A program made the position numbers and the translations under genes. Positions 7,435 through 64,000 of a stretch of 64,000 bases of DNA are shown here, piece after piece. This DNA is from an uncultured Bacteroidales bacterium. Lineage in GTDB: Bacteria > Bacteroidota > Bacteroidia > Bacteroidales > WCHB1-69. The first letter of the stretch is position 1; each line of letters starts with the position of its first letter. The stretch is from the NCBI GenBank assembly GCA_900317715.1, contig ONHS01000003.1, positions 7,954-71,953 on the forward strand. Direction: 5' to 3'. The notes under the pieces are model-generated. The model ran no database searches and was not told the origin of the DNA. It saw only the letters and a program-made list of their open reading frames with translations.

Positions 7435-9153
7435 ATGAAGAAAACTTTACTTGTTTTAGTTGCTGCGATGCTGACTTCCATGTTGGCATCCGCGCAAATC
7501 ACGGACACCATTGTGTCTTTAACCCCTTCCAACCGCAATGTGGTGATTGAGGAATACACCGGCATCAACTGCGGTTATTGTCCTGACGGTCACCGCAGAG
7601 CCAATGAAATCATGGCTGCGCACCCCGACAGAGTATGCGTCATTAACATTCACGAAGGCGGCTATGCAGCTAACACATACACCACCCAGTTCGGTACTGC
7701 TTTGGCCAACCAAACGGGCTTGACCGGCTATCCGGCAGGTACTGTGAACCGTCACGTCTTCGCCGGTTCCGTCACCGACTTGAACAGAGGACAGTGGGCA
7801 TCTGCCACCAACAATATGTTGGGGACAGCTTCTCCTGTGAACATCGCCGCTGACGGTACTTTGGATTGGACTACGCGCACGCTGAACATTCGCGTCCAAT
7901 TGTATTATACCGCAGCTCAAACCGTCACTTCCAATGCATTAAACGTGGCTATCTTACAAGACAATGTGTTGGGTTCCCAAAGCGGTATGTCCGCCAACCC
8001 GGATCAAGTTGTTGGAAACCAATACAATCACATGCACATGTTGCGTCACCTGATTACGGGTCAATGGGGTGAGACCATCTCCACTATCGCTCCGGGTACG
8101 CTGGTTGAGAAAAATTACGAATATGTGATTCCCGAACAACTCGGCTCCCCGAATGCTATTGATGCCGTTTTAGAGGATTTGCAATTTGTTGCTTTTGTTT
8201 GTGAAGGCCATCAAGAAATCCTTACGGGTATCCACGTTCCCGTTGAATACATCAACATGCCCGCTATTTACGGTCGTATGGTGGCTATGAAGGCTGGTTC
8301 CAACATCACTTGTGATAATCAAGGAAACGCCTATTTTGAGCTTAAGAACTTAGGAAGTGCCCCCATCACCTCAATAACCTATAACTACACCGTAAACGGC
8401 ACTCAATCCACCTCAACTTGGACAGGAAACATTGCTTCCATGTCAACCGAAGAGATTGACTTGCCTACATTTGACATCAATTTGAACACTAACAATAGCA
8501 TCTCAGCACAAGTGACGACTATTAACGGTGAAGCTGCGACTGTTGAAGCCAAGAACATGACGTTAAAAAAGAACGTCTATACCGGTGGTGGCCGTATGAT
8601 TTTCAAACTCGTGACCGACCGTTACGCTAGCGAAACCACATTCAAAATCTTTGATCCGAACGGCAACGTTGTTCTCTCCGGTGGTCCTTGGGCAAACCTT
8701 TCTGCAAACGGCACGACCATCCGTGAATTTGAATTCAATCCTTCAACAACGGGTTGTTATCGTTTGGAGGTTTATGACTCCTATGGCGATGGCATCAGTG
8801 CAGGTACCGGTAATGGATATTTCCAACTGTTTGCAGAAGATGGCTCCCAGATTTTCCGCGACAATGGCAAATTCGGCAGCCAAGCCACTTACATGATTGA
8901 CGTAGCTTATCCTGCTGGTGTTGAAGAATATACGACAGAAACGGTCATCTATCCGAACCCCGCAACGGATGTCATCAACGTCATGACTTCTGACAATGTT
9001 GAGCGCGTTGAAATCTACAACATGCAAGGTCAACTTGTGAAAATGGAAATGAATGTTGAAAATATTTCCATCCGCGACCTGTCCAATGGTGTTTACATGT
9101 TGAAGCTCACCACGGACAAAGGTTCCTCCATGCACAAGATTGTCAAGAAATAA
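7435..9153 (+). CDS. Secreted Omp28-related / thioredoxin-like protein with a T9SS C-terminal sorting domain
   Basis: Signal peptide ending ASA|Q. EEYTGINCGYCP motif. A YGDG beta-sandwich region. The last ~68 aa (VIYPNPATDVINV...GVYMLKL...KIVKK) match the type-A T9SS CTD pattern. Confidence 0.82.
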   Translation: MKKTLLVLVAAMLTSMLASAQITDTIVSLTPSNRNVVIEEYTGINCGYCPDGHRRANEIMAAHPDRVCVINIHEGGYAANTYTTQFGTALANQTGLTGYPAGTVNRHVFAGSVTDLNRGQWASATNNMLGTASPVNIAADGTLDWTTRTLNIRVQLYYTAAQTVTSNALNVAILQDNVLGSQSGMSANPDQVVGNQYNHMHMLRHLITGQWGETISTIAPGTLVEKNYEYVIPEQLGSPNAIDAVLEDLQFVAFVCEGHQEILTGIHVPVEYINMPAIYGRMVAMKAGSNITCDNQGNAYFELKNLGSAPITSITYNYTVNGTQSTSTWTGNIASMSTEEIDLPTFDINLNTNNSISAQVTTINGEAATVEAKNMTLKKNVYTGGGRMIFKLVTDRYASETTFKIFDPNGNVVLSGGPWANLSANGTTIREFEFNPSTTGCYRLEVYDSYGDGISAGTGNGYFQLFAEDGSQIFRDNGKFGSQATYMIDVAYPAGVEEYTTETVIYPNPATDVINVMTSDNVERVEIYNMQGQLVKMEMNVENISIRDLSNGVYMLKLTTDKGSSMHKIVKK

Positions 9154-52830: not shown

Positions 52831-54348
52831 TTATCTTTTGACGATTCTAAAGATAGCAGCACGATGCTCTTCGCGGCTAGGATCCGTGATGTTTTGTCTG
52901 TTTTGAGGATCGTTCACCGTATAAGAGGCAGTTTCAATTTGATCGGGAGACACGCCCTTCTGGATGAAGAGATTTCTAACGTTGTTAGCTCTTCTTTGAG
53001 CGAGGTCACGATTATGTTGTTCTGAACCTAAATCGCAAGTATAACCTTCAACGATGAGCTTCAAAGAAGGATTAGCCTTCAAGATAGCTACGGTTCTGTT
53101 GATATTGTCGTTATAATCAGCAATCTTAGGAATATCTTTATCTAAGTCAAAGAGAATCTTGGTCTTGGACAAAACGTCGCTCAACTCATTGATAGCGGCT
53201 TTGTCTTCAGGAGTCAGATAATCGTCATCATCATTCAACTGATCGCAAACAGGAACAATGTAGATGTACTGAGGATCTTGTTTGATAATGATAGGCTCAT
53301 TAGCCTTCTTCTTGAGTTCTTCCAGAATTTCTTTTTCGATATCCTTCTTGGATTTCTCTTCAGGAGTAGCACAACACTTGAAGTGGAAACCAGCCTTTAC
53401 ACCAACTTGGAGAAGATTCCATTTCGTTTGGTTTTTCTTAATCTCGTTGTTTTGATAAGCCACGTTGAGCATATCAGAACCGAGCGTACCATTGAATTGG
53501 ATGTCACCATTGTTAGCAAGACCTAACAGAGGAGTTTTTTCTTTAGGAAGAATATCCAAGAAACCATACTTACAGTAAGCACCAACGTAGAAATCAGTCT
53601 TTTTGCTGATAGCGAAAACACCACCGAAATCGGCGACGATGTCAGCAGAAACTCTCATTTTCACATTGCGGCCTTTGCCAGTATAAGAAGCTTCACCAAA
53701 GTGGTTGTTCATCTTAATTTGACCATTTTCTTCATGAACGATATACCATTGGTTATAAAGGTCTTCATAACCACAGGTAGTAATGGTACCTTCACCTACG
53801 TATTTGTTGTACGCTTTGATAGGAATATAAGCCTGAACACCGAGAGCTGCATAGATACCATTACGGCCATCAAAACGCCAGTCGAAATGAGCTTTCAAAG
53901 GAACTTCAACTGCCCAAACAACTTCTTTTTCTTTCAAACCGTTAGCATCATAATACAGATCATAAACAGGATTGTAATTCACTGGTTGAGCAAAAGCAGG
54001 ATCGTTAGGATCGCTGTAACCCGGGATTACACCACTCTTGGAGAAGGAAGCCTTAGCACCAATGCGGTTCAAACCAGTACCGATGCTCAAGCCCCAATGT
54101 TCGTTGAAGAAGTAAGCATAGTCAATATCTAACATCGTGCTATGAGAATAGTATTGGTTAATACCAGCTCTTCTGTAGATATTGTTAGTCCAAGCCTCAC
54201 CCGCATGAATGTTAACGTGATGAGGGCAGAAGGTAGAAGTCTCATAATTGTCCGAATTAACTCCGGCATTATTTTCAGTTTGTACCTCTTGACCAAAAGC
54301 GGTACACATCGCGAAAATAAGACTGACTAATAATAAATTCTTTTTCAT
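52831..54348 (-). CDS. OmpA-family outer-membrane protein (N-terminal beta-barrel plus C-terminal OmpA-like peptidoglycan-binding domain)
   Basis: Signal peptide ending AFG|Q. Aromatic-rich beta-strand region. C-terminal IVEGYTCDLGSEQHNRDLAQRRANNV motif. Confidence 0.88.
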   Translation of the reverse strand: MKKNLLLVSLIFAMCTAFGQEVQTENNAGVNSDNYETSTFCPHHVNIHAGEAWTNNIYRRAGINQYYSHSTMLDIDYAYFFNEHWGLSIGTGLNRIGAKASFSKSGVIPGYSDPNDPAFAQPVNYNPVYDLYYDANGLKEKEVVWAVEVPLKAHFDWRFDGRNGIYAALGVQAYIPIKAYNKYVGEGTITTCGYEDLYNQWYIVHEENGQIKMNNHFGEASYTGKGRNVKMRVSADIVADFGGVFAISKKTDFYVGAYCKYGFLDILPKEKTPLLGLANNGDIQFNGTLGSDMLNVAYQNNEIKKNQTKWNLLQVGVKAGFHFKCCATPEEKSKKDIEKEILEELKKKANEPIIIKQDPQYIYIVPVCDQLNDDDDYLTPEDKAAINELSDVLSKTKILFDLDKDIPKIADYNDNINRTVAILKANPSLKLIVEGYTCDLGSEQHNRDLAQRRANNVRNLFIQKGVSPDQIETASYTVNDPQNRQNITDPSREEHRAAIFRIVKR

Positions 54349-54387
54349 AATATCTTTTACTTTTTTTATTCTGAGATGATTGTGAAA

Positions 54388-54420
54388 CCGGGGCTTAGCG
54401 GCCGGAGCCGCTAAGCTCGG
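54388..54420 (-). terminator. Strong hairpin between the giant T9SS gene and the OmpA-family gene
   Basis: CCGGGGCTTAGCGGC-cgga-GCCGCTAAGCTCGG, a 14-bp stem with one mismatch. Only a weak U tract. May be a terminator, attenuator or processing site. Confidence 0.5.
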
Positions 54421-54431
54421 TATTCAACATA

Positions 54432-54677
54432 CTATTTTACGATAACGAATTTAACAGTCTTGATTTCATTTGTACCCGTCAAGATACGACCGAAGTAAGT
54501 ACCTTGTGCCTTGAATCCTTCAATCTTAGTGATCGGAGTCAAATCAGTCACGTGGTTGATAAGAGCACCAGTCACGCTGTAGATGTCGAGGACTGCACCT
54601 TCGAGTTCTTCAGCTGTCAAATCAAGTTCGATAGTGATTTCTTGACGAACATTTGCAGGAACAGGATAAACCTTGAC
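54432..54677 (-). other. T9SS C-terminal sorting domain (CTD) of the giant protein
   Basis: The last 81 aa are VKVYPVPANVRQEITIELDL...LDIYSVTGALI...GTYFGRILTGTNEIKTVKFVIVK. This is the same pattern as the CTD of 7435-9153. Confidence 0.8.
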
Positions 54678-57600
54678 AGTAGAAACTGCATTGAAGTACA
54701 TTTCACAAGTCTTATAGGTAATCATGTTGCCGTTAGCATCTTGTTCAATCAATTCAACTGAATAGAATCCGTTCAGACCACCGATCTCTTGATAGTTAGA
54801 ATAGATAGCGCCAGGAATTGCAACACCATTTCTGTACCACTGGAAGCCCACGAAGGTGTGACCACCGTTGGTTGCAGGATTGTTGTTCACAACCACAACG
54901 TCGTTCCATCTTTGATCCATGATCGGGAGAGAACCACCGAATGCGTAATCACCAGCAAGTACACGTACTACGATGTCGTATGAACAACCATCCACTGTGA
55001 AGACTGCAGTGTAGTCACCAGGAGCAGAAGGAGCTGCGAATGTAGCAGAGTTGTTGCTGATCGTGCCAGCATCTTGTAAACCGTTGTTATAAACCACGGT
55101 GAATGCAGCTTGAGGATTACCGGAAATCATGTTGAAGTGGATGGTCACTTGACCATTGTCATTACAACCTGATTCGAAGAAGTTCTCAGAGAATTCAATT
55201 TCGTTGACGAAGACAGTAGCAATAGCATCTGCAGTGAATGAAGTGTTCTCGCAGTAAGCGTCAGCAACCAAATTAATTCTGTAAGTGGTTTGTTCGCTCG
55301 GAGCGACGAAGATGCTAGCCGTGTTAGCCATTGTAGTAGCAGCAGCAACAACATTACCATTGCCATCAACAACCTCATATTGGAACGGAGCAACACCGGT
55401 GAATGCGATAACGAGTTCAACAGATGCACTAGGATCGTTAGAACAGATTGATGCGCCATCACCACTGGTGAAGGTAGCCGTAGGCAGTTCGTGGATGGTA
55501 ATTGCAGCAGCAACAGCACCAGTATTGGTCAATTGACAACCGCTACCAATGTTACCAACGAAGGTCGGAGTATAGGTGTAAGTACCAGCTTGAGTAGGCA
55601 GATCGTATGAATTGCCACCGAGACCGCCAGACACGTCAGTCGTGTTGCCGTTTTCATCAGTAACAGTCCATTGGATATGACCACCAGTGTAGTAAGCATA
55701 ATCGAATGCACCACCTTGGATAGCAGCCTGCAAGGTAACGAGGTCGCCGATACAACCGTCTAACAGATGTGAGCTGTAAACGTGAACCTCGGTCCAAGAA
55801 GGATTACCAACAACATTCACAACCTCGACGTTAGAGGATTGAGGTTGACAGTTGTAACCAGAAGTTGAAACGACAACCTGATAGCTGTAGTTGCCAACAG
55901 TGTTCAGAGTCTCAGTAATCTGGTTCATAGCAGTGGTGACAGGAGTATTAGAGTGTGCAATGACACCGTTAGAGAGCCAATTGAAGGTCATATTACCGTA
56001 GATGTTGCTGTTCGTCACACCATTGACAGTATTGTTGTAGTTGGTAACAACACCAGTGAGAGTAACAGAACCGCCTTCGCAGATAGCAAGACCATCAGCA
56101 GAGTTCAAAGCCACAACAGGTTGTTCAGCAACTTGGACAGTCACAGGAGCAGACCAAGTAGAAGCGCAACCGAGGTTGTTGTTTTGAGCAACTCTCAAGG
56201 TGTAGGTGTAAGAACCAGCTGCATTGAGAGGTTGTACGAAGGTATTAGCAACAGCGCCTTCAACTTCAATACCGTTGATAGCCCATTGATAGGTGATATC
56301 GCCAGGAATGTTGCTGTTAGCGGTAACGTTTGCAGTCAAAGTGGTGGTACCACCAACACACATTTCAGTGTGGTCAGCAGCGATAGTCACTGTAGGAGCA
56401 GCAACAACTTGAACAGGAGCAGCGATAGTAGCTGTAGCAGAACAAGAAGCGCTTGCATTGGCAGCAGAGACGATAACGCTTGCACTGATTGTACCAACGT
56501 TTGCAATAGAAGCGGTAACAGTGTTAGCATTCACAGCTTGTTGTGTACCGTTGACCGTCCAAACATAGTTGTAAGAACCAACAGGAGCAACGTGAGCGGT
56601 GAAGGTCACTTGACCGTTTGCACATACATAGTTATTATCAGCAGTGATGGTAACTGAAGGAGCAGCCAAGACATTCACTTCGTGAGCCTCAGAAGTTGCG
56701 GTACATCCAGTATTGTCGGCACGAGAGATCGTGACGGTGAAGTAATAAGGAGTAGCAGCATCGTTAGCAGCAACAGAAGGAACGAAGGTAGGAACAGCAG
56801 TGGTCTCAGTACCTTGAGCAGCACCAGTCCAATTCCATACGTAGGTGTAAGCAGCACCTTCAACACCACCAGTGACGAATGCATTCAAGGTGAGGTCACC
56901 GCCTTCACAAACCGTATTAGCACCGTTGATTGTCACAGAAGGACGTGCAACAACATTTGCAGGAACAGTGTTGGAGACAGTTGAACAACCATTGATAGCG
57001 CTGGTCACAACCACATAGTAATCGTAAGAATCACCGAGGAGGAGATCTGAAGTGGAGTATTGTGCAGCATTTGCACCTTGGATAGCAACTGCATTGTCAC
57101 CATTCACAATTCTGTACCATTGATAGCTCAAAACATCACCAGTGATAACATTGTTCACAGTAGCAGTGAGAGTAAGGTTACCACCTTCGCAGACATTGCC
57201 GAAACCAGCGATGTCAACAGTGTAAGAAGGATTGATGCTAACCAGCGTATTGATATTTGCAGAAGCATTGTTAGCGCAACCAATACCGGTTTGAGCGATC
57301 TCAACAGTGTAAACATCATTGTCACCATAGTTGAGAACAGGGATGTTCAGAGTTTGGTTGGTCTCACCATTCATAATAGTACCATTCTTGTACCATTGAT
57401 AAGTGATGTCACCATAACCGCCAGTCACATTAGCCTTGATAGCCGTAGAACCACCGTTACAAACAGTAGTAGCATAACCGTTCACGACAGAGATCGTCAC
57501 GACAGGATCAGCAACAATGCTGTAGTTGACAGGATCAGAAGTGGATTGACAACCATAGTTAGAGGTGACAGTCACCCAGTATGAGTAGTTGCCAGCAGCA

Positions 57601-60600
57601 TCCTCAGAAGAAGTGGTGAATGAAGGAGTATTAGCAACAAACTCAGTAGTAGTATTCGTATTTCTATACCATTCGTAAGTGTAACCATTCAGACCGTTCA
57701 CACCTGCAACACCACCGTCAACAACTGCGGTGAGAGTAGCGGTACCGCCAACACAAGTGATGTCATTGCTAATAGTAGCAGTAACAACAGGATCAGCAAC
57801 AACCGTGATAGCAGGAGCAGCAGCAGTCACGTTACAACCAGGATTAGCAGTAACAACCACAGTGAAGTTGTAAGCAGTTTCGCGAGCAACCTCAGCAACA
57901 GTGTAATCAGCGCTGTTAGCACCGAGGATCACAGCATTGTCCTTATACCATTGATAGCTATAAGCAGCGAGAGGAGTAACATTTGCATGTAAGGTGGTAG
58001 AACCGCCATCGCAAATGGTAGTATTACCCTCAACAGTAACAGCCACAACAGGAGTAGGAACAACCGTCACGATTGCATCAGCAGAAGCAGATGAAGTACA
58101 ACCAGACATCGGCACGATTGCAGTTGCAGTGTAAACGTAGATGGTAGCGTCACCATCAACCGTGACAGGAGACTCGGTCAGAGTAGCCTGATGAGCGTCA
58201 GAGATGACAACACCATTTCTAGTCCATTCGTAAGAAGCACCCGCAACAGCGTTAGAGACAGCCAAAGTAACTTGACCACCGTCGCAAATCGTAGCGTTAT
58301 CAACGGTTACGACAGGAGTAGCAGGAACTGCATTCACAGTGATATTGATAGTATCCGTAGCAACACAACCAGAGGTGCTTTGAGAAGCCGTCACGATGAA
58401 GGTCTCAACACCAGCGGTGGTAGCATTGAAGGTATAAGCAGAACCTTGGAAACCATTGTTCCAGTTGTAGTTCACATCGCTATTGTTCCAACCGGTAACT
58501 TCAGCAGTGATAACGGTAGTACCGCCAACACAGATTTCAGTCTCGGTAGCAGTGAGCTGCATTTGAGGAGCCTCAGCAACAGTTACGTCGTAAGACATAG
58601 ACTCAGTTGAACAAATACCAGAAACCGTAGCAACAACCTTATAAGAACCAGCTGCGGTAACAGTGATATGATCAGCAGTAGGAACATTGTTCATAGCAAC
58701 ACCATCCTTGTACCAAGCGTAGGTGATGGCAGAAGCAGGAGCGGTTGCCGTAACATTTGCATACAGAGTGGTGTTACCACCGTCGCAGAAGTTATTGACA
58801 CCAGAGATGACAACAGACTCAGGAGCGGAGATACCAACATAGTAAGCATAAACGATACGACCATTGTACATAGCGTACGGTAATGCACGTTCAGATACAC
58901 AACCTTCTTCGCTGGTAACAGTAGCAGAGAGATAGTGAAGACCTTCTTCTGCATTGAAGATGATTTGAGCAGTATTCATACCAGGAAGTTCGAAACCATC
59001 CATGTACCAAGTCACTTGCATGTTATCAGTGCCCTGAGCAATGATAGCTGCAATTTGAGAACCAGTACAGATAGAATCAGCAGAAACAACCACGATAGGA
59101 GTAGCAGGACGAGGATTGACGTTGATCGTAATCTCACCAACAGCTTGACATGTGCCAGCAGCGTTAGTAACAGTTGCAGTCACAGTGTAAGTGGTGGTGG
59201 TATCAGGTTGTACGTCGATCGTAGTAGCGTGGCTACCAGTTGACCATACGAATTCAACATTGCCAACCCAACCATTTTGCTCAACAGAGAGAGTGGTATG
59301 TTCACCTTCACAGATGTTAGTAGCAGTAGCGCTCACGAGAACTTGAGTACCGAATGCTTCAACCGTGAAGTTATCAGAAGTCATAGAGCAACCTTCTGCA
59401 GTTTCGAGGGTCACGTTGTAAACGCCAGCCTCAACCACATGGGTAGCACCGACAGTACCGTCGTTCCAAGTGAAGGTACCTTCAACATCAGAATGAGCGG
59501 TCAAAACAGTAGAATCATTTTGACAAATGACATTGTTACCTGTGATAGTCACAGTGGTAGGAGCAGGAGTGACAACCACAGCAGGAGCAGCAACAGCATC
59601 TGCAGAGACGCATTGTTCATTGCTGATAGCCTTGACAGAGTAGTTGTAAACACCAGCCTCATTGAAGTTAACCGTAAGAACTGCTTGGTTCTCACCAGCG
59701 ATCACATGACCGTTGTTGTACCAAATGTAAGCAGTAGCGGTTGAATCAGCCGTAGCGGTGAAGGTCACCTGCTGACCTTGGCAGATAACAGTATCAGAAA
59801 CTGTCACAGCAGTAATAACAGGCAGCGGGTTAACAACGATGGTAACCTGACCCTCAGCGGTACAAGAACCGTTGTTGTTGGTAACAGTAGCAGTCACATG
59901 ATAAGTGGTGGTAGCAGCAGGAGTGACATCAACCGTAGAAGCGGTGCTGTTGCCAGCCTGAGCATCCCATTGATAAGTCACATTGCCTTGCCAACCTTCT
60001 TGGTCAACAAACAGAGTGGTATGTTCGCCCTGACAAATAGCGGTAGCAGAAGCGCTCACCAAGATGTCAGTACCGAAGGACTCAACAGTGAAAGGTTCAG
60101 AAGTCATTTCACAAGCCTCTTCCTCAGTGGTGCTAACCGTTACAGTGTAAACGCCAGCAGGAACCTTGATAGAAGACTCGTGAGAACCGTTAGACCAAGT
60201 AATGATACCCTCAACATCAGAGGAAACGGTCAAAACAGTGCTGTCACCCTCGCAAATCACATTGTTACCAGTGATAGTAACTGATGTAGGAGCAGGATTG
60301 ATCGTAACCATAGCTTCAGGAGACATCGCAGAAACACAACCTGAACCCGGGAAGGTAACGATAGCGCTATAATAATTGGTCGTCACATGATTGTCAGTGG
60401 TGAAGACATTCTCAGTGAAGATAGGCAGATGTGCACCTTCGATTTCGAAGCCATTTCTGTACCAAGTGTAGACACCTGCTTCGTCATTGTCTTGGTCAGT
60501 AGAAGCAGCCACGATAACTTGAGCGCCGTTACAAACAACGTCGTCAACTGCGATAACTTCAGTAATCACAGGAACAGGAGCAACATTGATGATAATCTCG

Positions 60601-63600
60601 TCATTAGCGGAACAAGTAGAGTGGGTTTGGAATACATCAACACCGATGATGGTAGTATCAGTAAGTGTAGTAGTATAAGTAGGTGAAGTAGCACCAGGGA
60701 TGTAGTAACGATATTGAACAACGCTAGTGTCATACAAGAAGTGTTCATAATCGTTATAAGCAGGATCATAATCGTAAGCGCTGATAACTTGTTGTTCGCG
60801 GATTTCATACCAATGATAGGTAAGGTTCTCAGCATTGTAATCATCCAAGTTAGCAGTCAAAGTAACTTCACCATTAGTACAGATGTTGGTTTCAGTAGCT
60901 GTGATGTTCACAACAGGTTGAGTGAAGACATAAACGAGGTATTCCTCAGAATGTGCTTGACAACCGTCTGCGATATCGTCACGCCATACGTCAACAGTGA
61001 ATCTGTAAGGTTCGTCGCGAGGATACAGATACTCAGCGAAGAAGTTGTTATCGCCAAGGTTGTAACCCATATTATCTCTGATTTGGCCAGATTCGTACCA
61101 AGTGTAGTGCAGATGACCCACATTGTAACCAACAGTGTCAACATTTGCAATCAAGAATACAGAATCGGTTTCGCAGACGAATTGATCGCCAGTGATTTGA
61201 GGTCTAGGATTCGGGTAAACGATAACAGGAGTCGTGGTAGAAACAGGAAGTGAAGTACAACCAGCTTCAGGGAAGGTCACCATAGCGGTGTAGTTGTATT
61301 GTTGAACATTATTGTCGATGATAGCAGGAGTATCGAAGATAGTACTTGCAACAGCACCTTCTAACACATGACCATTTCTGAACCAAGTGAAAATACCGTC
61401 GGTACGATCGCTGTTAACAGTAGCGGTAACGGTGATTTGTGAACCGTAACAAATATTCTGAGCAGAAGTGGTAACTGAAGTGATAACAGGGATAGCGTTA
61501 ACAACAACAGGAAGTTCGTTAGAAGTAGCAATACAACCAGAGGTGAGTTGTTCAACAACCAAAGTGTAGTTGTGAGTACGAACACCTTGAGGAACGTAAG
61601 TGTAGCTCATACGAGTTGCACCAGGAATAGCAACATTGTTGTCATACCATTGGAAGGTGAGCATATCTTCATTCCAATCAGCGAGAGCAGCAGTAAGAGT
61701 AATCTCACCACCTTCGCAGATGTTGTTCTCAGTAACATTGATTGTCACAACAGGATTAGCGTTGACATAAACGAGAGCTTCGCTGGTAGCGCTGCAACCA
61801 TATTCGTTCTCGATAGAAACGCTGAAGCTGTAAGGATAATCTCTATAAGGTCTGCTAATAGAAATGGTATCATTAGTAGTTTGAGCAAACATATCATTGT
61901 TTTCGAACCACTTATACTGAACACCCGTAGGAACAGAAGGATAGAGATTAGCTACAAGAGTAATGTTGTTAATAGTATCAACACAAACGATAGGATCGGT
62001 AACGAGTTCAACAACAGGATTCGGGTTAACCGTGAATCTATTCATCAACTTCACGTCAGACTCACAACCAGGCTCGTCTTGTGCAACAGAAACAGCGTAA
62101 ACATATTGAGTAGGTTCATTGTTGAGAGCGGAAACAACCTCAGTAAAGGTAGGAGCGGTTGCACCCTCGATGACAGCACCATTACGATACCAAGTGTAAA
62201 CAGGATTGTTGTTCACACCACCAGTAACGTTAGCAGTCAACACAACTTGATAACCGTCACAAACAACATTTTCAGTAGGAATGTTGTTAGAAATTGAAGT
62301 AACAACAGGATCAGCAACGACATTTACATTCAAAGTGTCAGAAGTACCAACACAACCAGAGGTGAGTTGATTAACAACGAATGTATAATTGTGGTTACCT
62401 TCTGCAGGAGCATAAGTGTAGCTCAAAGTAGTTGCATTAGAAATAGCAACACCATTGTCAAACCATTGATAGGTGAGTTCATCTGCATTCCAATCAGCGA
62501 GAGCAGCAGTCAAAGTGATTTCACCACCGTTACAGAGGAGGGTATCAGTAACTGCAATGTTCACGACAGGAGCAGCATTCACATAAACCAAAGCATCAAC
62601 ATGTGAAACGCAACCGTATTCGTTTACGAGTTCAACTGCGAAGCTGTAAGGATAATCTCTGTAAGGTTTCGTGAAGTAATAAACGCTATCCATCGTTTGC
62701 GCAACGAGAGCATTGTCTTCAAACCACTTGTAAGAAATAGCAGTAGCAGGCATCGGATCAACATTTGCATAAAGAGCAATATTGTTAGTATCCTCAACAC
62801 AGACAATAGGATCAGTAACAAGTGCGATAGAAGGATTCGGGTAAACAACAACTGCATGGTCGAAGGTGAAGACTTCAGATTCGCAACCAGAAGCGGATTG
62901 TTGAACCTTAACAGCATATACATAGCTTGTAGGCTCATTGTCAATAGCGACAGGAGCATCAACTAAGATATATTCGTTGGAGTTTTCGATAACTTCACCG
63001 TTGCGGTACCAAGTGTAAACCTCGCCACCATCAACACCGCCGCTGATAATATCAGCAACCATGGTAACAGTTCTGCCTTCGCAGATGGTATCATTACCAC
63101 CTAAGTCGTTAACAGCGGTAACAACAGGAATATCGTTGACAACAACGCGGAAAGTATCGTAAGCAACACAGTATTCAGTGTTGACATCCATCAGGTGAGA
63201 AACCATCACGATATAGTCGGTGGTGCGAGCGGGCTCGAAGGTCTCAATCTCATGAGTAGCACCGAGGATACGGTTTTGGTTGGTAGCACTGTTCTTGAAC
63301 CATTGATAAGTTAACATCGGATCATTGTAGTTCTCCAAGTTTGCACGAAGAGTAACTTCACCACCTTGACAAATCTCGTTGGCATCGCCAGTGATATGAG
63401 TGTAAGGTCTGGTATAGACATTAACTTCGAAAGGAGCAGAAATGGTAGTACAACCATCGCCATTGGTAACTTCAACCGTGTAGATATAAGGATTCAAATA
63501 AGTAGGAACCATCTTCTCTGCATAGTTGTTATCCCAACCTGCGATATTGTCTCTGCGTTGGCCGCTCTCATACCAAGTATAAGTAGCGTCAGGATCAGCA

Positions 63601-64000
63601 ATACCGTCAACCCAAGCGGTGAGGACGACATTGACGTCTTGAGGTCCGAAGTAGCAAACATTCGGGTTACCATCGATTGTGACGATCGGGTTACGACGCA
63701 CGTGGATAGTATCAGAATTAACCTCAACAAGCTCACAACCAGGAATGTCATAAACCATATAAGCGCTGTAAACGTAGTCAACAGGATCACTGTCATAAAT
63801 ACCAGCTTGAGCGCTGAATTCAGGACCATGGATATCATTCAAATCGATACCATTGAGTCTCCAAACATATTCATGATCGTAATCAACGATGTAATTACCA
63901 GTAGGATTACCATTTGCATCAAGTGAATCAACCAATGCTTGGATATTCAATTGAGCACCCTCACAAACGTTGGTGGTCGGAAATGCAGGATTAGCATTGA
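54432..64000 (-). CDS. Giant cell-surface repeat protein (more than 3188 aa, N-terminus outside the window): roughly three dozen Ig-like ~80-90-aa modules plus a type-A T9SS C-terminal sorting domain
   Basis: The track start at 63950 is TTG, and the frame stays open to nt 64000 (..TNVCEGAQ-LNIQ..). Module signature C.GG..TL.A ... Y.W(Y/F).NG ... C is repeated throughout. Rich in T/V/N/A/G. Confidence 0.93.
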   Translation of the reverse strand, partial: NANPAFPTTNVCEGAQLNIQALVDSLDANGNPTGNYIVDYDHEYVWRLNGIDLNDIHGPEFSAQAGIYDSDPVDYVYSAYMVYDIPGCELVEVNSDTIHVRRNPIVTIDGNPNVCYFGPQDVNVVLTAWVDGIADPDATYTWYESGQRRDNIAGWDNNYAEKMVPTYLNPYIYTVEVTNGDGCTTISAPFEVNVYTRPYTHITGDANEICQGGEVTLRANLENYNDPMLTYQWFKNSATNQNRILGATHEIETFEPARTTDYIVMVSHLMDVNTEYCVAYDTFRVVVNDIPVVTAVNDLGGNDTICEGRTVTMVADIISGGVDGGEVYTWYRNGEVIENSNEYILVDAPVAIDNEPTSYVYAVKVQQSASGCESEVFTFDHAVVVYPNPSIALVTDPIVCVEDTNNIALYANVDPMPATAISYKWFEDNALVAQTMDSVYYFTKPYRDYPYSFAVELVNEYGCVSHVDALVYVNAAPVVNIAVTDTLLCNGGEITLTAALADWNADELTYQWFDNGVAISNATTLSYTYAPAEGNHNYTFVVNQLTSGCVGTSDTLNVNVVADPVVTSISNNIPTENVVCDGYQVVLTANVTGGVNNNPVYTWYRNGAVIEGATAPTFTEVVSALNNEPTQYVYAVSVAQDEPGCESDVKLMNRFTVNPNPVVELVTDPIVCVDTINNITLVANLYPSVPTGVQYKWFENNDMFAQTTNDTISISRPYRDYPYSFSVSIENEYGCSATSEALVYVNANPVVTINVTENNICEGGEITLTAALADWNEDMLTFQWYDNNVAIPGATRMSYTYVPQGVRTHNYTLVVEQLTSGCIATSNELPVVVNAIPVITSVTTSAQNICYGSQITVTATVNSDRTDGIFTWFRNGHVLEGAVASTIFDTPAIIDNNVQQYNYTAMVTFPEAGCTSLPVSTTTPVIVYPNPRPQITGDQFVCETDSVFLIANVDTVGYNVGHLHYTWYESGQIRDNMGYNLGDNNFFAEYLYPRDEPYRFTVDVWRDDIADGCQAHSEEYLVYVFTQPVVNITATETNICTNGEVTLTANLDDYNAENLTYHWYEIREQQVISAYDYDPAYNDYEHFLYDTSVVQYRYYIPGATSPTYTTTLTDTTIIGVDVFQTHSTCSANDEIIINVAPVPVITEVIAVDDVVCNGAQVIVAASTDQDNDEAGVYTWYRNGFEIEGAHLPIFTENVFTTDNHVTTNYYSAIVTFPGSGCVSAMSPEAMVTINPAPTSVTITGNNVICEGDSTVLTVSSDVEGIITWSNGSHESSIKVPAGVYTVTVSTTEEEACEMTSEPFTVESFGTDILVSASATAICQGEHTTLFVDQEGWQGNVTYQWDAQAGNSTASTVDVTPAATTTYHVTATVTNNNGSCTAEGQVTIVVNPLPVITAVTVSDTVICQGQQVTFTATADSTATAYIWYNNGHVIAGENQAVLTVNFNEAGVYNYSVKAISNEQCVSADAVAAPAVVVTPAPTTVTITGNNVICQNDSTVLTAHSDVEGTFTWNDGTVGATHVVEAGVYNVTLETAEGCSMTSDNFTVEAFGTQVLVSATATNICEGEHTTLSVEQNGWVGNVEFVWSTGSHATTIDVQPDTTTTYTVTATVTNAAGTCQAVGEITINVNPRPATPIVVVSADSICTGSQIAAIIAQGTDNMQVTWYMDGFELPGMNTAQIIFNAEEGLHYLSATVTSEEGCVSERALPYAMYNGRIVYAYYVGISAPESVVISGVNNFCDGGNTTLYANVTATAPASAITYAWYKDGVAMNNVPTADHITVTAAGSYKVVATVSGICSTESMSYDVTVAEAPQMQLTATETEICVGGTTVITAEVTGWNNSDVNYNWNNGFQGSAYTFNATTAGVETFIVTASQSTSGCVATDTINITVNAVPATPVVTVDNATICDGGQVTLAVSNAVAGASYEWTRNGVVISDAHQATLTESPVTVDGDATIYVYTATAIVPMSGCTSSASADAIVTVVPTPVVAVTVEGNTTICDGGSTTLHANVTPLAAYSYQWYKDNAVILGANSADYTVAEVARETAYNFTVVVTANPGCNVTAAAPAITVVADPVVTATISNDITCVGGTATLTAVVDGGVAGVNGLNGYTYEWYRNTNTTTEFVANTPSFTTSSEDAAGNYSYWVTVTSNYGCQSTSDPVNYSIVADPVVTISVVNGYATTVCNGGSTAIKANVTGGYGDITYQWYKNGTIMNGETNQTLNIPVLNYGDNDVYTVEIAQTGIGCANNASANINTLVSINPSYTVDIAGFGNVCEGGNLTLTATVNNVITGDVLSYQWYRIVNGDNAVAIQGANAAQYSTSDLLLGDSYDYYVVVTSAINGCSTVSNTVPANVVARPSVTINGANTVCEGGDLTLNAFVTGGVEGAAYTYVWNWTGAAQGTETTAVPTFVPSVAANDAATPYYFTVTISRADNTGCTATSEAHEVNVLAAPSVTITADNNYVCANGQVTFTAHVAPVGSYNYVWTVNGTQQAVNANTVTASIANVGTISASVIVSAANASASCSATATIAAPVQVVAAPTVTIAADHTEMCVGGTTTLTANVTANSNIPGDITYQWAINGIEVEGAVANTFVQPLNAAGSYTYTLRVAQNNNLGCASTWSAPVTVQVAEQPVVALNSADGLAICEGGSVTLTGVVTNYNNTVNGVTNSNIYGNMTFNWLSNGVIAHSNTPVTTAMNQITETLNTVGNYSYQVVVSTSGYNCQPQSSNVEVVNVVGNPSWTEVHVYSSHLLDGCIGDLVTLQAAIQGGAFDYAYYTGGHIQWTVTDENGNTTDVSGGLGGNSYDLPTQAGTYTYTPTFVGNIGSGCQLTNTGAVAAAITIHELPTATFTSGDGASICSNDPSASVELVIAFTGVAPFQYEVVDGNGNVVAAATTMANTASIFVAPSEQTTYRINLVADAYCENTSFTADAIATVFVNEIEFSENFFESGCNDNGQVTIHFNMISGNPQAAFTVVYNNGLQDAGTISNNSATFAAPSAPGDYTAVFTVDGCSYDIVVRVLAGDYAFGGSLPIMDQRWNDVVVVNNNPATNGGHTFVGFQWYRNGVAIPGAIYSNYQEIGGLNGFYSVELIEQDANGNMITYKTCEMYFNAVSTVKVYPVPANVRQEITIELDLTAEELEGAVLDIYSVTGALINHVTDLTPITKIEGFKAQGTYFGRILTGTNEIKTVKFVIVK
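58845..60299 (-). repeat. Two tandem ~729-nt (243-aa, three-module) super-repeats inside the giant gene
   Basis: NPAPTSVTITGNNVICEGDSTVLT at residue ~1218 recurs as TPAPTTVTITGNNVICQNDSTVLT at ~1461. The nucleotide string CATTGTTACC.GTGATAGT occurs at 59531 and 60260. Confidence 0.8.
60680..63143 (-). repeat. Three tandem ~815-nt (~272-aa, three-module) super-repeats inside the giant gene
   Basis: Residues ~270-545, ~545-817 and ~817-1090 repeat the same three module types. The identical 25-mer CATTCCAATCAGCGAGAGCAGCAGT occurs at 61671 and 62486, exactly 815 nt apart. Confidence 0.85.

Follow-up and report, generated by a model that had tools for sequence, protein, structure and literature searches.

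How does a protein of several thousand residues leave a bacterial cell, and what holds it at the surface afterwards? These questions are raised by one end of a 64,000-nucleotide window of the genome of an uncultured Bacteroidales bacterium (the window corresponds to contig C96:7954-71953). The minus strand of this region (54432..64000) carries the C-terminal part of a giant gene for a type IX secretion system (T9SS) cargo, comprising 3,188 codons and a TAG stop, and is followed by a gene of the OmpA family (52831..54348, minus strand). The original prediction, made from the sequence alone, described the product as a very large adhesin or fibril-like surface protein exported by the T9SS and composed of about three dozen Cys-bracketed immunoglobulin (Ig)-like modules of 80-90 residues. 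Export and a fibril-like nature are supported by the C-terminal sorting domain (CTD), the presence of a T9SS core in the genome, the signal peptide and tail of orthologues, homology to the solved fibre protein GhpA and the signature of selection. We consider it probable that the locus encodes a T9SS-exported long surface fibre of ~57 Ig-like beads together with a dedicated outer-membrane/wall partner. The protein is of a known kind, real and well conserved; what differs here is the combination of a type-A CTD with a plain barrel-OmpA partner.

The frame contains no stop codon between 54432 and 63998 in the open reading frame (ORF) listing of the window, in agreement with the uninterrupted frame announced by the original prediction. 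Past the window edge it is still open at the contig end (C96:74018), where it amounts to 3,877 aa in a stop-free span of 11.6 kb without reaching a start; a TTG codon at 63950 is therefore irrelevant as a start. The recovery of the missing 5' end had been proposed; it is not in this assembly but can be read from the full-length orthologue P0002, a protein of 5,489 aa with which the 3,877 aa share 98.7 % identity throughout their length. P0002 consists of a predicted signal peptide (MKKFMIFLLMAFLYLGTCQA, a start common to P0002 and more than 40 other orthologues), a beta-rich N-terminal domain of 116 aa, 57 modules (residues 137-5415), 55 of which contain exactly two Cys, and the CTD. The signal peptide was judged by eye and with a crude rule rather than a predictor, on orthologues, the N-terminus being absent from this assembly. 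A lipoprotein signal was rejected, as the Cys of LGTC^QA is Ser in several orthologues. From the orthologue, the mature protein is calculated at ~584 kDa with an isoelectric point (pI) of ~4.1.

The stalk is made of modules arranged head to tail. With a profile grown from one of the protein's own modules, 33 copies were counted in the window part and 38-41 in the 3,877 aa; such a profile is circular, being built from the protein itself, and its E-values are descriptive only. The module envelope has a median of 92 aa (range 76-137), slightly longer than the 80-90 aa of the original prediction. The aligned-module consensus, P.v.t...iC.Gg.vTLtAnv...tY.Wy.NG..i.g...t.t...g.Y.ytV.Vt..GC...s..V.V..P, matches the signature C.GG..TL.A...Y.W(Y/F).NG...C noted earlier. 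The module family had been thought not to be assignable with confidence to a named domain. This proved too cautious: a Pfam-A search, independent of our own profile, names it Ig_7 (PF19081, 'Ig-like domain CHU_C associated'), with 178.2 bits against a gathering threshold of 27.3 over eight stretches, and weaker matches to Ig_3, Ig_2 and PKD. By profile and Pfam together, ~29 canonical tandem Ig_7-type modules of ~92 aa each occupy 55791..64000 (minus strand), with two conserved cysteines, C1 in 'iC.Gg.vTL' and C2 in 'GC'. Within this stretch lie three-module super-repeats of ~816-837 nt and 723-729 nt sharing 60-77 % nucleotide identity. Tandem Repeats Finder (score of at least 100) reported nothing in the fibre gene, the repeats being too diverged and too long for the program. 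Between the canonical modules and the CTD lie four atypical, presumably membrane-proximal Ig-like domains (54672..55790, minus strand), predicted as all-beta with a local confidence score (pLDDT) of ~80-95 over tail-model residues ~105-480. The prediction of module structure, suggested at the outset, was run as an AlphaFold2 (AF2) model of the last 560 aa with 21 aligned homologues and gave a bead chain of all-beta domains with a mean pLDDT of 84.8.

The stalk is homologous to the stem of GhpA and belongs to the same repeat family, Ig_7. A phmmer search of the window protein against the sequences of the PDB retrieved GhpA at E 1.6e-74 over 11 stretches, with the C..G...L and GC motifs aligned in both proteins, and a Foldseek search of the tail model against the PDB placed GhpA fragment 6 on top (9flw_A, E 1.2e-14), ahead of generic Ig/FnIII chains. 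A profile of the tail gave no match at E<=1 among PDB sequences. GhpA of Aureispira sp. CCB-QB1 measures 5,898 aa. It bears both a Sec signal and a T9SS sorting domain, and an N-terminal hook of 1,400 aa precedes its 52 Ig-like repeats; it forms a cell-attached heptamer 240 nm long whose disulfides join nearby Ig-like domains, and its gene is followed by ghpB, encoding a PorP-like barrel, and ghpC, encoding a PorE/OmpA-like protein (Lien et al., bioRxiv 10.1101/2024.01.29.577165). Its structures are available as PDB 9flp, 9flw and related entries. The two systems share a giant cargo (~5,489 aa in P0002), whose export by Sec and the T9SS is in the present case predicted, a stalk of Ig-like repeats (57 against 52) with the same two-Cys signature, and coding capacity, located after the fibre gene, for a barrel of the outer membrane and for wall binding of the OmpA kind. 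They differ in several respects: P0002 has only the 116-aa domain before its modules and no hook of ~1,400 aa; the CTD is of type A, whereas that of GhpA is served by PorP; the partner is one barrel-OmpA_C polypeptide without PorP/PorE similarity instead of the products of two genes, ghpB and ghpC; and the host is an anaerobic gut/rumen Bacteroidales rather than a marine predator. The fibre protein is not a GhpA orthologue: neither the hook head nor the PorP/PorE partners are present and, within the tests made, there is no type-B route. In addition, the modules match PDB 9ncf_S 'Immunoglobulin-like domain protein' (E 2e-18) and 9c2d_S 'tail protein' (E 6e-11), which display the same repeat without the cysteines.

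Two other groups of proteins invite comparison. SprB of Flavobacterium johnsoniae (6,497 aa) is also a giant filamentous T9SS cargo of Ig-like repeats, and Pfam associates the Ig_7 repeat family with SprB-like giant proteins; unlike the present protein, SprB has a type-B CTD and an adjacent PorP-like SprF, neither of which was found here. Fibrillar adhesins with Ig-like stalks, for example those of the Bap/SasG/SiiE type, share the long tandem Ig-like stalk, the strain-dependent copy number and the surface display; the Bacteroidales fibre differs from them by its T9SS export, by a Cys pair in nearly every module and by the lack of any adhesive tip that we could recognise.

The modules had been called Cys-bracketed. 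As a sequence pattern this description stands, but a bracket closed within one domain is probably not what the cysteines form, judging by analogy with GhpA and by strand topology. Within one module the C1-C2 spacing is variable (median 63.5 residues, 45-107), the distance from C2 to the following C1 is near constant (median 27 residues) and C1 of module n lies a median of 156 residues from C2 of module n+1. The GhpA disulfide named by its authors, Cys2988-Cys3140, spans 152 residues (bioRxiv 10.1101/2024.01.29.577165), and by the phmmer-aligned ranges Cys2988 corresponds to C1 of one module and Cys3140 to C2 of the next. In the secondary structure of the AF2 model, C1 falls at the A'-B turn, the pole where the chain exits to the next module, and C2 in the F-G loop, the pole where the chain enters the module. 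The last of the four atypical domains, immediately before the CTD, carries a C2-type Cys only. Because of these spacings, the GhpA disulfide, the position of both cysteines at the poles and the lone C2-type Cys of the last module, the conserved cysteines more likely staple adjacent modules, C1(n)-C2(n+1), than bracket a single one.

Export through the T9SS requires a sorting signal, and the original prediction had recognised a type-A CTD at the end of the protein. The domain measures 79 aa (54435..54671, minus strand) and ends in ...GTYFGRILTGTNEIKTVKFVIVK. It matches TIGR04183 of NCBIfam (cut-off 23) narrowly, with 26.3 bits when the last 300 aa are scored and 27.8 bits in a six-frame scan of the genome; it is thus recognised as type A, but the assignment from these profiles is borderline, and the refuting outcome named in the original prediction, a CTD that no profile recognises, was only narrowly avoided. 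In the AF2 model a linker with pLDDT below 50 (tail residues 481-489), predicted to be disordered, directly precedes a small beta domain at the very point where the profile match begins. The last 30 residues are almost invariant in orthologues down to ~44 % identity, and NCBI lists a 54 % identical homologue, P0071, under the name 'T9SS type A sorting domain-containing protein'. A type-B CTD was rejected: TIGR04131 and CHU_C gave no match at E<=1 on the tail, and the fibre is not among the 25 type-B matches of the genome. The T9SS core is encoded in the genome, with SprA (2,384 bits), PorU (1,191), PorV (475) and PorM/GldM (307) all over their NCBIfam cut-offs, and three genes of the PorP family are present. 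Type-A cargos are usually anchored to anionic lipopolysaccharide (LPS), without need for a private partner.

The fibre gene nevertheless appears to have one. The gene that follows it was correctly placed in the OmpA family by the original prediction: in its product of 505 aa, a signal peptide is followed by a predicted beta-barrel (aa ~43-324), which a linker helix joins to an OmpA_C domain (aa ~360-505; PF00691, 58.8 bits against a threshold of 27.2). The AF2 model of this partner is of moderate confidence (mean pLDDT 69.5), with the barrel at residues 43-324, and in fold it comes closest to the model of full-length E. coli OmpA, to the transmembrane barrel of OmpA (1bxw) and to Pal. The PorE model reached 34 bits, against a cut-off of 600, over the OmpA_C part only. 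Neither a paralogue of the partner in the genome nor a PorP gene adjacent to the fibre gene was found.

The association between the two genes was followed through related genomes. Among 18 genomes of the same genus, which are related and not independent samples, the ten with a fibre gene all have the partner directly beside it, and the barrel part of the partner occurs in 11, namely these ten and one incomplete genome in which it lies at a contig end. The search recovered neither gene from the remaining seven; the cassette is therefore an accessory trait. Homologues with 41-45 % identity in the tail are again directly followed by an OmpA-family gene of 492-514 aa, in neighbourhoods containing AMP-binding/CysS and Cys_Met_Meta_PP genes instead of secE-nusG, and in one species extra genes are inserted between the pair and secE while the pair itself is undivided. 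Overall the pair is kept in four unrelated neighbourhoods and in homologues down to 41 % identity. The 83-nt spacer separating the two genes harbours a GC-rich RNA hairpin (54381..54429, minus strand) with a perfect inner stem of 10 bp, a folding free energy of -28.5 kcal/mol and a z-score of -5.3. Each of the 20 spacers examined, from orthologues and distant homologues, has a stem of 9-13 bp at this place; the stems differ considerably in sequence, and six of the eight consensus pairs show compensatory changes. The hairpin is followed by an A-rich stretch, GAATAAAAAAAG, but by no good U-tract, and a simple terminator scan detected no site in the spacer; a sigma-70 promoter scan of the spacer is not informative for Bacteroidota. 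The hairpin may attenuate transcription, stabilise the mRNA or mark a site of processing. Fibre gene, hairpin and partner are strictly linked.

This linkage bears on a first alternative, according to which the protein would not stay on the cell but pass into the medium or onto vesicles, as a fibre of a matrix or biofilm, and the OmpA-type gene would be merely a co-expressed envelope protein. Outside Porphyromonas, to judge from the secretomes of F. johnsoniae, many cargos with a type-A CTD lose this domain and are then set free; the partner resembles a generic OmpA, and the hairpin between the genes could terminate part of transcription. We regard release as unlikely when set against the strict conservation of gene order, spacing and hairpin down to 41 % identity in the four neighbourhoods, the co-occurrence of fibre and partner, or the failure to find either, across the genus and the partner's lack of a paralogue. 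The solved relative GhpA is, moreover, attached to the cell and accompanied by genes for outer-membrane and peptidoglycan partners (bioRxiv 10.1101/2024.01.29.577165).

A second alternative would make the protein a mobile gliding-motility adhesin of the SprB/RemA type, moved along the surface by the gliding machinery. RemA of F. johnsoniae does carry a type-A CTD. The genome encodes GldJ, which scores 450 bits alone and 462 with neighbouring in-frame matches (cut-off 458) and lies beside the PorP, PorU and PorV genes, as well as GldB (222 bits against 190) and GldM; judging from these genes, the organism may possess gliding-type machinery although it is an uncultured rumen/gut anaerobe. The GldJ, PorP, PorU and PorV genes are clustered at C31:7207-15144 and GldB is located at C77:16135-17058. 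SprB is likewise a giant Ig-repeat T9SS cargo (bioRxiv 10.1101/2024.01.29.577165). On the other side, the fibre protein has neither a type-B CTD nor an adjoining PorP/SprF-type gene, the peptidoglycan-binding domain of its private partner suggests that the base is fixed and does not travel, and seven of the 18 same-genus genomes searched yielded no cassette. A gliding adhesin is accordingly judged quite improbable.

That the gene is decaying, or an artefact of repeat assembly, is hardly credible: the contig does break inside the gene, leaving 1,615 N-terminal codons outside the assembly, and repeats could be mis-assembled, but there is no stop in 11.6 kb, the repeats inside the window are only 60-82 % identical at the DNA level in a repeat search and the signal peptide and tail are conserved among independent intact orthologues. 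The break falls where P0002 carries three near-identical super-repeats of ~270 aa; the ~1,615 missing codons, signal peptide included, have no stretch of at least 80 % identity elsewhere in the assembly, and C96 shows no suffix-prefix overlap with any other contig end of the assembly. The ratio of nonsynonymous to synonymous substitution rates (dN/dS), computed on the last 657 codons against ten orthologues, is 0.16-0.32, and intact orthologues from independent assemblies run into the dozens. On this ratio and these orthologues, the gene is a real one subject to purifying selection and the pseudogene reading is rejected. The orthologues derive from rumen and gut metagenome-assembled genomes labelled uncultured Bacteroidales (Hadza gut, buffalo and sheep rumen, goat omasum).

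Returning to the long surface fibre with a dedicated partner, its assembly can be envisaged as follows. A strongly acidic precursor of ~584 kDa (pI ~4.1) would be exported by the Sec pathway and would fold in the periplasm into a chain of ~57 Ig-like beads. The type-A CTD would route it via SprA as translocon, PorV as shuttle and PorU as sortase towards display at the surface as a fibre which, at ~4 nm per bead, would measure roughly 200 nm. Its N-terminus would point away from the cell, whose surface would be nearest to the four atypical domains and the CTD; C1(n)-C2(n+1) disulfide staples would lend the rod stiffness, as in GhpA. The co-transcribed partner would serve as the base or anchor of the fibre, tying the outer membrane to the wall at the fibre exit, and the hairpin would set the relative expression of the two genes. 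Surface anchorage is probable, and an anchor role is the most likely one for the partner.

Several observations weigh against this scheme. The TIGR04183 score falls to 19.5 bits, under the cut-off of 23, when the whole repetitive protein is scored; Pfam PF18962 gives the CTD 19.1 bits against a cut-off of 27; and the fibre CTD ranks only ~73rd of the 83 type-A matches of the genome (~81 over the cut-off). A PorP-like partner, as found in GhpA, had to be rejected, with no match to the PorP/SprF families at E<=1 and a probability of 1 % in hhalign against the genome's own PorP. The anchor role is drawn by analogy with type-B systems and is not a demonstrated rule. A Pfam search of the first 420 aa of P0002 revealed no adhesin-type head. 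Finally, the comparison of length and module number between orthologues, which had been recommended, gave 3,654 aa and 34 modules to 5,523 aa and 57 modules for complete orthologues with unchanged signal peptide and tail; most of these sequences come from short-read metagenomes, so that the collapse of repeats during assembly could account for some of the spread.

Of the two terms of the original wording, 'adhesin or fibril-like', the second is thus supported; the first, in view of the N-terminus of the orthologue devoid of a binding head, is a function that we infer. A bolder proposal is that the cassette represents the type-A-CTD counterpart of GhpA-GhpB-GhpC in anaerobic gut/rumen Bacteroidales, namely a rigid, possibly multimeric, stapled rod of ~200 nm on one private barrel and wall-anchor base. 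We advance it tentatively, as a possibility with the balance tilted against it; if true, the rod could serve in the rumen to catch particles, protozoa or other cells. The strain-dependent bead number and the accessory distribution in the genus suggest that the fibre has to do with specificity for a niche or a partner.

Giant T9SS fibres rank with the largest proteins of bacteria and, to our knowledge, only GhpA among them has both a solved structure and a known role. Uncultured Bacteroidales of the rumen and gut widely share the GhpA-like stalk design, here with a type-A signal and a single-gene outer-membrane/wall partner, which raises the question whether a type-A cargo, thought to need only LPS attachment, also uses a private anchor. 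The assignment has value for annotation, such genes being now labelled 'PKD domain-containing' or 'hypothetical', and it provides cryo-electron tomography and proteomics of rumen isolates with a target.

The composition of the fibre protein is biased towards the residues indicated by the original prediction (V 12.3, T 12.3, A 9.6, N 8.4 and G 7.2 %), with K at 0.6 % and R at 1.6 % only, and the many open antisense frames also reported there amount to 12 ORFs of at least 100 aa inside the gene. Its AT-richness is real but modest, with a GC content of 44.8 % (38 % at third codon positions, GC3) compared to 48.8 % for the whole genome and 40.3 % for the downstream gene. A low GC3 (38-40 %) is common to fibre gene and partner, the value for rplJ being 55 %, and other giant ORFs have an overall GC of 48-51 %; the cassette may have a history or an expression level unlike those of its neighbours. 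The Bacteroidota O-glycosylation motif D[ST][AILVMT] occurs 18 times in the window part against an expected 13.3 +/- 3.5, which is not significant, and 42 times against 23.5 +/- 4.7 in the full-length orthologue, which is higher; from such motif counts, O-glycosylation of the fibre is a possibility only.

The 3.1-Mb genome carries ~81 type-A ORFs and ~20 type-B ORFs, a very large CTD load for a gut/rumen Bacteroidales. The best type-A CTD of the whole genome (65.4 bits) belongs to a 576-aa ORF in the same window, with the CTD match at 8947-9150 on the plus strand (C96:16900-17103). At least ten more giant ORFs of the same module (~900 to more than 5,158 aa), several of which run off contig ends, are distributed over contigs C32, C101, C95, C38, C40, C92, C81 and C97; among them, a type-A CTD is found on C101 and a type-B CTD on C95.

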